A stretch of 64,000 nt of DNA from NCBI RefSeq assembly GCF_030384885.1, contig NZ_CP128614.1. One strand, 5' to 3'. The notes beneath the pieces are model-generated. The model ran no database searches. It saw only the letters and a program-made list of their open reading frames with translations, and was not told the origin of the DNA. The position numbers and the translations under genes were made by a program. The stretch is from Escherichia coli. GTDB taxonomy: Bacteria > Pseudomonadota > Gammaproteobacteria > Enterobacterales > Enterobacteriaceae. Each line of letters opens with the position of its first letter. Position 1 is the first letter of the stretch. Shown here one piece after another: positions 60,559 through 64,000 of this stretch.

Positions 60559-60728
60559 AAAACCTCCTTTTCATCTGTACTTATTATACTGTTACCCAAC
60601 CCCCAGCTAATAACCTCCCAGCAAATTTTCAGAAAAAAAACACCGCCTTTTATTTAAGATTGAACACATCCTTTTTTAATACCAACAATGATTATGAAAC
60701 CACAATGTAAGTGAAGCGCCATTATGGA

Positions 60729-60965: not shown

Positions 60966-62009
60966 CTAAGACCAGCGGTAATACTTAAAGTAGTCCTCAT
61001 TTACAGCCAAAAACTCCCTTAAACCGTTCATTAATCCCTTTTCAAACGCTGTAACGATAAACCGGTATCCGTCCAGTGTTTCAATGTAGTAGATCCCGCC
61101 CGGTGTTATTCCAACATGCAACACCTCGGCTGTCATCATAAACTGGCCTTCCGGAAAATCATGCGACAGGTATATAAAACCCGTCGTGGCCGGTGCGGGT
61201 GTGGCATTCACTAAGACACCGTTAAACTGCTGCCCGTGCCTCGCCGGTACAAGCTCACTTCCCCTGGTTGACTTATCGAGCAGCCCCTTAACATCTTTTT
61301 GCTCTTTAGATGAGGTATAGCCCCGCACATCACTCCCATCACCTGGGCGAGAGCCGGTGCCGACATGTGCAAGACGACGGTAAGCGCTGCGCATATTGAT
61401 GTGGCAGGATGCCCCGGCTCTACCCTGAAGCCTTACGCCAAAATCTTCGCAAAGTAATAAAATCTGACGTAGCTGGTGTTCATACACGGACGCAGAAAGT
61501 GAAAGGTTGAAACTGGAAAAGGTCAGTTCTAAAACCTTTTCCCGTTTGTCATTGAAATGTGCTTCCAGCCTGATGATTGGCTTTTCCGACATTGCAAAAG
61601 CTTTGTCCGTTGCTCTGTACCGGCATTCATCTCCGAAACATTCTTCAACAACGCTGGCTATAACCGTGTCGTGATCGCCATCTTCCGGAGCTGGCACAAA
61701 GATTTCAAATTGTGCCGGTGTCTCCGGCTCCAGCAGAACGGGATATAAACGCGGAGAATTAAGCAATGCGCATTCAGAATTAATGAGCTTAACCCAGGCG
61801 CTTTTGTCGTCCGGATCCTTAAGCTGCTGTCCAAGGTTATCGCAAAAGTCTACTATCTGACGGGTATGCTCATCCGTGACTGCACAGATCAGGTTAAGAC
61901 CATGCGTGGCCATACTCAATTCCCGGGTTCGGGACTGGGAATTGATCGACCAGGGGTTAAGTGAAAGCGAAATAGGGCTTATGGAAGGGACGACCGTCTC
62001 ATTCTGCAA
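60966..62009 (-). CDS. hypothetical protein downstream of the HigB-like gene
   Basis: 347-aa ORF, 146 bp downstream of the HigB-like toxin gene on the same strand; no HTH recognised. Confidence 0.5.
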   Translation of the reverse strand: MQNETVVPSISPISLSLNPWSINSQSRTRELSMATHGLNLICAVTDEHTRQIVDFCDNLGQQLKDPDDKSAWVKLINSECALLNSPRLYPVLLEPETPAQFEIFVPAPEDGDHDTVIASVVEECFGDECRYRATDKAFAMSEKPIIRLEAHFNDKREKVLELTFSSFNLSLSASVYEHQLRQILLLCEDFGVRLQGRAGASCHINMRSAYRRLAHVGTGSRPGDGSDVRGYTSSKEQKDVKGLLDKSTRGSELVPARHGQQFNGVLVNATPAPATTGFIYLSHDFPEGQFMMTAEVLHVGITPGGIYYIETLDGYRFIVTAFEKGLMNGLREFLAVNEDYFKYYRWS

Positions 62010-62155
62010 ATCTGTAAGCTGGCAGTTCGCAGTAGGCTTCGGGGAAAGGGTACTAAATATGTAACTTGCCTATTGTTTAGTACTGGCCTGGATATAAAAC
62101 ATCGCGTCCATGCTTGTATCCCGGGATGAAATTGAAAATAGCTTCATTTTTAACC

Positions 62156-62452
62156 TTAATGGATGAGCGATTTATAGTCATGTGCTGACAAATGGACATT
62201 ATGTGCGCCATCATTCCATTCAAAGAATAATCGATACTTAGAGTTTACTCGAATGGAGGAATAACGGTTTGACGTCATTCTTAAGCGTTCATAACGCAAG
62301 CTGTTGGATAATAACTCCCGCTCACTCTGGACATTATCCAGCGTTTCGAGTCGACACAGAATCGCGTTAATAATTTCAGAAGGAATACCTGCCGTTGTTT
62401 TTCCATTACGGAAGAACTTTTCAAGCCGTCTGTCTTTAAATGAATGGATCAT
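62156..62452 (-). CDS. HigB-family (RelE/ParE superfamily) toxin-like protein
   Basis: 98-aa ORF; pattern MIxSFKDxxLEKFFxxGxxxGIP...YSSIRVNxKYRLFFEWxDG...HDY matches the recalled killer-protein HigB family. Confidence 0.55.
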   Translation of the reverse strand: MIHSFKDRRLEKFFRNGKTTAGIPSEIINAILCRLETLDNVQSERELLSNSLRYERLRMTSNRYSSIRVNSKYRLFFEWNDGAHNVHLSAHDYKSLIH

Positions 62453-62501: not shown

Positions 62502-62972
62502 TTAATGAATCCCTAAAATGCGGGCGGCGACTGCCAGCTGCTTATCACTTAACTGACGCTGGTGGGTTAAAGAAGACTTAAGGCTTTCCAGAAAATTATT
62601 ACTGCTGGATTGCTGGGTGATTGCATCAACCATTTTTTGATGAGATCTGCACCATGCATTGAACGCAGAGTTGTGGGCGTTTTCAGTCCTCAAACGCTCG
62701 TTTTGCAAGGATGCTGACACTTTGCGGGCAGCTTGAGCATTAATGCGGTACAGCGCATTCAGCGTGTAAGCAGTGCGGGTCGTTTCGAGGCTGTAACCCG
62801 TGGCTTTACAAGCCATACAGCGACTTCTATAAAAATGCTTACGCTCTCCCCGACCATTGCATTTATCGCAAAGAATACGAAAAGTATATTCCGCAGTACC
62901 TTTTACAGAATCAACACAGCGGATTTTTGCGCTGGAGATTTCAATTCCACTGCGATCATAATATTTGGTCAT
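62502..62972 (-). CDS. hypothetical protein with a CxxC zinc-ribbon-like motif
   Basis: 156-aa ORF with CDKCNGRG...CMACKATG. Confidence 0.45.
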   Translation of the reverse strand: MTKYYDRSGIEISSAKIRCVDSVKGTAEYTFRILCDKCNGRGERKHFYRSRCMACKATGYSLETTRTAYTLNALYRINAQAARKVSASLQNERLRTENAHNSAFNAWCRSHQKMVDAITQQSSSNNFLESLKSSLTHQRQLSDKQLAVAARILGIH

Positions 62973-63406
62973 AATGTGATTCCTCCGGTTAGTTCTGGAG
63001 TAATCATGACAGAATGAATCTACTGGCTAATAACCTGAGAGTAAATATTTTAAAAAAACATTGAGAGAGGGTCTGCAAATTTATACACGAAGGATTCAAA
63101 TATAATTTTGTTTAAAAAATTAAGAGCATTCTGAAGTAAAAGTGCATCAAAAAGCATTCATGGATAAATCATGTACTGGTGCCAGCCATTTAAACGCGGG
63201 CATTGTTCCGGAGTGATTAAACGGTTTAGCATCATAGATTAAAACCAAAAGGAAGGCGTCCTTCCCGTCTCGGGAATATTACTTTCCCGTTTGCAATTTA
63301 AGAGCCACTTAATGAGAAAGTAATAATTAAGTCATGCTCAACTCTACATATTACATTGAGGATGGCGTAACAGGGTACGGCATACTACCGCACCCTTCTG
63401 AAGAGC

Positions 63407-63814
63407 TTATGTTTGAGGGAATTCTATAGCAAATGTGGCCGTGCCAGATTGACCACTTACAGCGGGAGTAACGGGATACGTGCGCTCTTCACCATTACCA
63501 AGATCCAGTGACAGCGATTTAGTTTCACCAGGCTGGACCGTAACTCCGGCAACCGTAACGCCGAACTGGGCATTTTTCTGAACAGTCAGGGTTCCGTTTA
63601 ACTGTCCGGTAATGATAGAACCGTCCTGACGCCGCAACACACTGGTTCGGATGATGGCCAGCGGCGTGTTGTCCGTTGCTTTCAGTGCTACGGCTGTGGC
63701 CAGCGTCTTGAGATTATCCAGCATAATCAGATTCGCAGGCTGGTAGGTAAAATTAAGCGTTTTAGTGGTCCGGTTACCTGATTCGTCAATAGCCAGTGCC
63801 TCCAGATGATACAT
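63407..63814 (-). CDS. C-terminal part of a larger Thr/Gly-rich beta-type surface or tail-like protein (partial)
   Basis: 135-aa ORF rich in T, G, V and Q; an overlapping minus-strand ORF in another frame (63727..63921) suggests the gene extends toward the window edge or is frameshifted. Confidence 0.3.
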   Translation of the reverse strand: MYHLEALAIDESGNRTTKTLNFTYQPANLIMLDNLKTLATAVALKATDNTPLAIIRTSVLRRQDGSIITGQLNGTLTVQKNAQFGVTVAGVTVQPGETKSLSLDLGNGEERTYPVTPAVSGQSGTATFAIEFPQT

Positions 63815-64000
63815 CTGTCCCGATTCGTCAGTGTTGGGGAAGATTCTGGGGTATTCCGGAATAAAGACATCCTTGGATAACGGCGTGAATGCCAGGGTGA
63901 CCTTTTCAGAGTTAGGTCCACCAGCGAGCTGAAGCGATGTCAGGGAAGCATCCCCAGAGGCATCAGTAACGCTTATGCGAAGGTTCTCAAGCCCTTTAAC

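Follow-up and report, generated by a model that had tools for sequence, protein, structure and literature searches.

The window analysed here, a stretch of 64,000 nucleotides (nt) of Escherichia coli DNA (RefSeq assembly GCF_030384885.1, contig NZ_CP128614.1), carries a gene for a homologue of the toxin HigB that is the middle member of a closely spaced group of three. It is preceded by a gene for a zinc-ribbon protein and followed by a 393-codon gene, here called the partner, which is interrupted in the window by one amber codon. We read the triad as a three-gene operon and as a non-canonical tripartite toxin-antitoxin-like module, a composite reading to which we give an even chance of being right. 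Its anatomical part is held with high confidence; the specific mechanism is put forward tentatively and may well be wrong. The window is part of an IncHI2 plasmid backbone, as follows from the matched record pWL164-blaNDM-6, which encodes RepHI2 and a MobH relaxase, and all genes of the higB locus are on the minus strand.

In the original prediction, the HigB-like toxin was followed, after a gap of 146 base pairs (bp), by an unrelated protein of 347 amino acids (aa). The open reading frames (ORFs) and the spacing exist, with the 347-aa ORF running from a TTG start at 60966-62009 on the minus strand, but the gene model does not hold. The frame of this ORF extends upstream to an ATG at 62147, 8 nt past the higB stop, and the translation of the extended frame reads MKLFSISSRDTSMDAMFYIQASTKQ*ASYIF..., with the TAG at codon 26 as the sole interruption of 393 codons. 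Gln26 is invariant in 11 of 11 aligned homologues; the homologues are 391-394 aa long, as opposed to 315 or 347, and two IncHI2 plasmids aligned to the window have CAG where the window has TAG. Comparison with the plasmid pEC_HLJ255 reveals two single-nucleotide polymorphisms (SNPs) in 4,182 nt, the C>T change at 62072 and an intergenic change at 60677, and in this CAG-allele plasmid RefSeq annotates the full 393-aa coding sequence (CDS), starting 8 nt after higB. The apparent gap and the 347-aa ORF are thus artefacts of one nonsense mutation, a C>T change that turned the Gln26 codon into an amber stop within a 393-codon gene, and the “gap” itself is coding sequence. The close spacing of higB and the partner suggests that the two are translationally coupled.

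The annotation of the partner is uneven. For the TAG allele, RefSeq has a 315-aa CDS from the next ATG (61913; 60966-61913) that is not flagged as a pseudogene, and some CAG-allele records start the gene at Met13 (381 aa) and not at the conserved ATG. The product is named “flavin reductase” or “flavin reductase family protein” (WP_164846946.1, WP_001424497.1). A short antitoxin within the gap was sought as an alternative and none was found: a single additional ORF is present there (48 aa, 62077-62223), but it is out of frame and shares sequence with both higB and the conserved reading frame of the partner. Every partner homologue has Met79, and an internal start at this position was considered as a general feature of the family and rejected, no Shine-Dalgarno motif being conserved upstream of it across loci. 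A scan against Rfam returned no RNA family.

The order of zinc-ribbon gene, higB and 391-394-aa gene is the same in every related locus examined. These were L002, L003, L004, L006, L010 and the IncHI1A-typed plasmid pKPC_CAV1374, the set including three metagenome, sequencing-run and NCBI genome contigs, the very divergent contig L010 and a second IncHI2 allele (L006). Conservation of the pair in other genomes, which the original prediction had raised as a check, is accordingly seen, and its description of the downstream protein as unrelated does not stand, the genes being closely coupled and co-inherited: six loci have spacers of 8, 8, 8, 9, 9 and 15 nt between higB and the partner, and pKPC_CAV1374 has one of 8 nt. 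In the six-locus set without the near-identical L006, the partners share 30-62% identity with that of the window, the HigB proteins 62-85% and the zinc-ribbon proteins 36-64%. The three families are co-distributed and tiny: among 5.8 billion proteins, each forms 15-20 clusters. The loci share an IncHI-like synteny that includes Ig-like Big_3 genes and an Mrr_N-type methyltransferase; the close coupling of higB and the partner persists despite rearranged neighbours in L004.

Substitution rates were compared among the window/L006 allele, L002, L003 and L004, with L010 and the window-L006 pair left out. Between these lineages the proportion of synonymous differences (pS) is 0.65-0.86, such that synonymous sites are saturated, and the proportion of non-synonymous differences (pN) is 0.08-0.16 for higB, 0.19-0.27 for the zinc-ribbon gene and 0.23-0.36 for the partner. 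Where the synonymous rate (dS) could be computed, the ratio of the non-synonymous rate to it (dN/dS) lies at 0.05-0.10 in higB and at 0.10-0.39 in the partner. Judged by these values, all three genes are under purifying selection. The constraint on HigB is uneven along the chain. Residues 50-98, the beta-sheet half with Asp92-Tyr93, are 92-100% identical among loci whose partners are 48-62% identical, and residues 1-49 are 61-76% identical among the same loci. A possible reason is that HigB binds an unvarying host target with one of its faces, and that its other face evolves in step with the plasmid-encoded partner.

The amber allele is one of several natural disruptions of the partner. With an 81-nt probe centred on codon 26, for which an exact match denotes the TAG allele, 292 of 1,023 PLSDB records match exactly and the other 731 have one mismatch; among complete E. 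coli genomes, the match is exact in 137 of 259 records. The mismatch was confirmed to be at the TAG site in three plasmids, and the allele counts assume the same elsewhere. In addition, about 40 of 1,029 PLSDB records lack a contiguous copy of the partner gene, which is split by insertion sequences (IS) or truncated; the disruptions include an IS21 insertion (pSal-5364), an IS1 insertion and 3´ truncations. The other two genes are kept: higB has a near-full-length match in 1,080 of 1,082 PLSDB records, and the zinc-ribbon gene is near-full-length and unsplit in all 1,025. The same HigB accession, WP_000581857.1, is common to TAG, CAG and IS-disrupted plasmids, and CAG sister plasmids do not differ from the window by a single base in the presumed promoter region, gene 1 or higB; no compensatory change was found in the 4,182 nt compared between the window and a CAG sister plasmid. 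The partner is lost in about one-third of plasmids with higB unchanged, through events that are not phylogenetically independent; this argues that the full-length protein is not an indispensable antitoxin. In the window, its pseudogenization is a single recent SNP. The coordinates of the triad, of the domains of the partner and of neighbouring features are collected in Table 1.

Table 1. Features of the higB locus and its surroundings, in window coordinates.
Feature	Position	Strand	Basis or remark
Untranslated region upstream of gene 1, presumed operon promoter	62973-63249	-	Identical in TAG and CAG sister plasmids
Gene 1, basic zinc-ribbon protein, 156 aa, CxxCxGxG...CxxCxxxG	62502-62972	-	ORF; 49 nt upstream of higB
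49-nt spacer between gene 1 and higB, with higB Shine-Dalgarno, ACGGAGGAA	62453-62501	-	GGAGG conserved
Gene 2, HigB-family (RelE/ParE superfamily) toxin homologue, 98 aa	62156-62452	-	PF05015
8-nt spacer between higB stop and partner ATG, GGTTAAAA	62148-62155	-	8-15 nt in related loci
Gene 3, partner gene of 393 codons, amber-interrupted	60966-62147	-	Frame and homologues of 391-394 aa
Amber codon TAG in place of CAG (Gln26)	62070-62072	-	C>T at 62072, minus-strand sense
Partner residues 1-112, repeat A (beta-beta-alpha and beta-beta-beta-alpha unit)	61812-62147	-	AlphaFold2, pLDDT about 60-90
Partner residues 113-242, repeat B, internal duplicate of A, pI 4.7	61422-61811	-	AlphaFold2, hhalign
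Partner residues 243-292, basic linker, pI 10	61272-61421	-	Alignment; pLDDT <50
Partner residues 293-393, six-stranded small beta-barrel and C-terminal helices	60969-61271	-	Most conserved part
Orphan DNA methyltransferase, 416 aa	57153-58403	-	N6_N4_Mtase; PADLOC MTase_II, E 1e-46
Methyltransferase-fold protein, 206 aa	58572-59192	-	Adjoins 416-aa methyltransferase
Ig-like (DUF4165/Big_3) gene	63407-64000	-	Also in L003, L004 and L010
pLDDT, predicted local distance difference test; pI, isoelectric point.

The 98-aa protein is, on the evidence of profile matches, a genuine member of the HigB family, as had been proposed from its sequence pattern. It is matched by Pfam HigB-like_toxin (PF05015; independent E-value 6.2e-18, residues 4-88 on positions 2-88 of the 91-position model), by PHROG 3066, “toxin of TA system” (toxin-antitoxin; E 9e-18), and by the solved P. 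vulgaris HigB chains in the PDB (E 7.5e-6), from homology to which a RelE/ParE fold is predicted. Four residues are critical in P. vulgaris HigB, His54, Asp90, Tyr91 and His92 (Schureck et al., PMC5027501). A phmmer alignment of that protein to the window HigB places Asp90 on Asp92 and Tyr91 on Tyr93, both retained, and His54 on Glu55 and His92 on Lys94, such that both catalytic histidines are replaced and two of the four residues kept. The partner, at pI 5.2-5.7, is acidic in all but the most divergent homologue, and HigB is basic. For pKPC_CAV1374 (L016 2501-2797), the PLSDB gene table, known not to be complete, lists no CDS for the higB homologue, whose nucleotide identity is 79.5%, and gives the zinc-ribbon and 393-aa genes flanking it as hypothetical proteins.

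The partner appears, from the searches made, to constitute a novel family without match to any known one. The absence of an HTH (helix-turn-helix) or HigA-type domain from the downstream protein, already noted in the original prediction, was borne out with Pfam, where no domain of any kind was found in the 347-aa ORF or in 11 full-length homologues; nor did Pfam match the barrel family. NCBIfam gave no match at E<=0.01 for the 347-aa ORF or at E<=1 for two full-length homologues, PADLOC and PHROGs likewise returned no known family for the partner, and PDB profile searches with the full-length and barrel alignments gave insignificant matches and no known family for the partner. When 1.84 billion representative proteins were searched exhaustively with a profile, the full-length relatives retrieved all belonged to the family of the partner itself. 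AlphaFold2 on the 11-sequence alignment returned a pLDDT of 64 overall, with the N-terminal 240 residues reasonably confident and modelled as repeated beta-beta(-beta)-alpha units. Alignment of residues 17-110 with 149-241 by hhalign (probability 95.6%, E 1.2e-8) confirms an internal duplication, with two tandem repeats of about 95 aa. The linker motif QGRAGASCH...RRLA... is kept in closer homologues and lost in the most divergent member.

The C-terminal domain has a wider distribution. The last 100 or so residues match about 25 stand-alone proteins, mostly of 113-145 aa, in the same profile search, and with these sequences added the model of the domain reaches a pLDDT of 94.7 and shows a small barrel of six strands with helices flanking it. 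PH-like barrels occur lower in the match list for this domain, and flavin reductase is absent from it. The stand-alone barrel proteins (L007:3989-4411, L012:4001-4399 and L013:2531-2950; PHROGs 8840, 11960 and 2063) have no Pfam family and occur in arrays of small genes that are metagenomic and mobile-element-like.

The original prediction held that no small HTH antitoxin ORF is found upstream of higB. There is indeed no HigA-type HTH, but a conserved zinc-ribbon gene at this position had been overlooked. Its product is matched by phrog_4046 (E 4e-12), weakly by Pfam DnaJ_CXXCXGXG (E 1e-3) and weakly by the antiterminator-Q-like phrog_127 (E 2e-5 to 2e-3), and is strongly basic (pI 9.6-9.8). 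It is a candidate nucleic-acid-binding regulator or neutralizer. A PDB profile search with the zinc-ribbon alignment gave generic DnaJ zinc-finger similarity and no match to MqsA. The spacers between this gene and higB are 36-59 nt, and in six of six loci a conserved GGAGG immediately precedes the start codon of higB. Upstream of gene 1, a terminator-like hairpin of the preceding Ig-like gene is found at 63266-63250; scans for promoters, terminators and inverted repeats revealed no minus-strand sigma-70 consensus match or operator-like palindrome in the upstream region.

The window region is 100% identical to many E. coli plasmids, the matched reference pWL164-blaNDM-6 bears blaNDM-6, and the three-gene module is present on more than 1,000 IncHI resistance plasmids. 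The triad belongs to a co-directional run of about 45 genes, most of them small and hypothetical (about 170-205 kb of pWL164-blaNDM-6, also L009 and L014; about 28000-64000 of the window). The run points towards the MobI/MobH/TraD transfer region and looks like an establishment or anti-restriction block; among its products are a Hok toxin, an HNH endonuclease, DUF proteins and a member of the PAPS-reductase family. The 416-aa methyltransferase is a few genes downstream of the triad, co-oriented and syntenic with it in all related loci, and has an Mrr_N-like N-terminus in homologues. Large Ig-like genes (about 795 aa) flank the triad in one or two copies, one of which has moved from upstream to downstream in L004.

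For the module, IncHI2 plasmids in PLSDB fall into two allele groups. One comprises about 599 records with >=99% identity to the window, and those listed are mostly from E. coli and Salmonella; in the other, of about 425 records, the partner gene is 94.8% identical to that of the window, the other two genes are 96-99% identical, and the hosts are mostly Enterobacter among the records listed. The TAG records among those listed are from E. coli, Salmonella and one Klebsiella oxytoca, which suggests that the TAG allele belongs to the first group.

Several known systems resemble the triad in part. HigBA of the Proteus vulgaris plasmid Rts1 has the same toxin family (PF05015), a toxin-first, closely spaced operon on a large conjugative plasmid, and a basic toxin with the active-site Asp-Tyr kept here. 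It differs in that the partner of the present module is 393 aa as opposed to about 100 aa for HigA and has no Xre-HTH and no detectable HigA homology, that a zinc-ribbon gene precedes the toxin, that the equivalents of His54 and His92 are Glu and Lys, and that the partner is naturally lost. Because the defining Xre-HTH HigA is absent, the module is not filed as HigBA. Tripartite modules with toxins of this superfamily include M. tuberculosis TAC (HigB1-HigA1-SecB-like chaperone) and E. coli O157 PaaR2-PaaA2-ParE2. In logic only, these are alike in having three co-transcribed genes around a RelE/ParE/HigB-fold toxin and in splitting neutralizing and regulatory roles; here, by contrast, the toxin gene is between the other two, and comparisons with Pfam, NCBIfam, PADLOC and the PDB revealed no known antitoxin, chaperone or regulator similar in sequence or fold to the zinc-ribbon or 393-aa protein. 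In MqsRA, the RelE-fold toxin MqsR is followed by the gene for MqsA, a zinc-binding antitoxin with an Xre-HTH. A predicted zinc-binding protein is likewise encoded beside a toxin homologue of predicted RelE fold here, but its gene is upstream, and the protein has a DnaJ-type CxxCxGxG ribbon without an MqsA match in the PDB profile search. Orphan toxins left after antitoxin loss are comparable to the intact higB beside a disrupted partner in the window and in about one-third of IncHI2 plasmids; they differ in that here an intact triad is ancestral, with a loss that is recent and polymorphic and a zinc-ribbon gene that persists throughout.

In the mechanism that we propose, HigB would cleave mRNA or block translation at the ribosomal A site, and the 393-aa protein, encoded in the position of HigA, would be a co-expressed binding partner or modulator of HigB. 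The toxin would be restrained in another way, by the zinc-ribbon protein, by low expression or by weak toxicity, since the full-length 393-aa protein is not required for cell survival. A number of observations weigh against this reading. The toxicity of HigB, its binding to the ribosome and the contacts among the three proteins are predictions from sequence. RNase activity of the window HigB is uncertain because the equivalents of His54 and His92 are Glu and Lys. Adjacency of the genes would be inherited and not independent evidence of functional linkage, because the loci represent one plasmid lineage with shared synteny. The zinc-ribbon protein is unusually basic for an antitoxin, and the one functional hint for it is the weak similarity to Q-like antiterminators. 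No consistent toxin neighbour was found for the stand-alone barrels in their contexts in L007, L012 and L013. The natural losses of the partner, too, can be read differently: the amber lineage is very young and could have spread by hitch-hiking with resistance genes rather than by neutrality, and the 3´ truncations may be an effect of a neighbouring insertion hotspot, which the 3´ end of the gene abuts in some plasmids. As to the active site, RelE uses Lys, Arg and Tyr residues, and active sites vary within the RelE/ParE superfamily; the makeup of the RelE site means that the residue pattern neither proves nor excludes activity of the present HigB.

The residue replacements also favour an alternative in which the HigB-fold protein is not a growth-arresting toxin and the operon serves establishment, anti-defence or gene regulation, with the 393-aa protein as a losable accessory effector. 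Such a role fits the common and uncompensated loss of the partner, the position of the module by the MobH/TraD region in a co-directional array of small genes with orphan DNA methyltransferases, the recurrence of the barrel domain as small proteins in phage and mobile-element arrays, and the absence of a PADLOC-DB v2 defence-model match for the three proteins of the triad or their homologues. It is harder to reconcile with the match to PF05015 over the full domain and with the very strong purifying selection on the beta-sheet half of HigB with its Asp-Tyr, as expected for docking on a conserved target, e.g., the ribosome; no alternative activity has positive support, and we regard this explanation as a minority possibility. 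The partner could instead be the sole antitoxin of a two-component, HigBA-like system, with a shorter product of the amber allele still neutralizing HigB, made by re-initiation at the TTG of codon 47 or the ATG of codon 79 (the 315-aa CDS) or by low UAG read-through. Gene order and the 8-15-nt spacer place the partner in the antitoxin position, an acidic and fast-evolving protein is encoded beside a basic and conserved toxin, Met79 is invariant and the truncated examples inspected keep the 5´, HigB-proximal end. We nevertheless consider this unlikely: no Shine-Dalgarno motif is conserved before Met79 across loci, a start at codon 47 or 79 removes half of repeat A, and an interaction of the partner with HigB is conjectural. 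Moreover, because the IS-truncated variants lose the C-terminal barrel, the most conserved part of the protein, no single region of the partner is kept in all natural variants.

Two further explanations bear on the origin and identity of the downstream gene. The original prediction left a choice between a non-canonical pairing and a degenerate locus. Both parts have some truth, the pairing being non-canonical and conserved in every related locus, and the locus being degenerate in the window, where the partner has an amber codon. A decayed canonical higBA, from which the higA gene was deleted and behind which an unrelated gene now lies, would account for the lack of a HigA or HTH gene and for the partner pseudogene in the window. 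As a description of the family, it is effectively refuted and very improbable, in that the “gap” consists entirely of conserved, in-frame coding sequence from the 5´ end of the partner, the triad with its 8-15-nt spacing persists across synonymous-saturated lineages with pN far below pS, and pseudogenization is a single recent SNP. We give almost no credence to the proposal that the downstream gene is a flavin reductase unconnected with HigB. It derives from the RefSeq product names, which are unsupported because no profile or barrel-list match to flavin reductases was found: no Pfam match, Flavin_Reduct included, in 11 members, no NCBIfam match, and no flavin reductase among the PDB profile matches.

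In conclusion, the higB locus of the window is a conserved triad in which, judged by homology searches, two of the three proteins are new and the toxin itself belongs to the known HigB family. Toxins paired with unrelated partners no longer surprise specialists. A search of the IncHI2 and HigB literature revealed no study of the module, the papers giving automated “higB/higA” listings, and the existing annotation is misleading in its “flavin reductase” name, in an unflagged 315-aa CDS and in the absence of higB from one gene table. IncHI2 plasmids form a clinically dominant family and are major carriers of resistance genes. One novel, if improbable, interpretation is that the 393-aa protein represents a new class of large, HTH-less HigB partner, an antitoxin or gating sensor, which together with a zinc-ribbon regulator or neutralizer makes up an IncHI-specific tripartite module. 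If so, effects on plasmid maintenance, establishment or phage defence would be expected, and epidemic resistance plasmids would contain, in the amber allele, a natural loss-of-function variant whose phenotype could be measured. Natural plasmids that have or lack the partner and are nearly isogenic, differing by 2 SNPs over 4.2 kb, would allow its part in toxin control, plasmid stability or transfer to be tested cleanly. Should the partner or the zinc-ribbon protein neutralize HigB, it would be a new type of antitoxin; should neither do so, a HigB-fold protein would have been recruited to another plasmid function.

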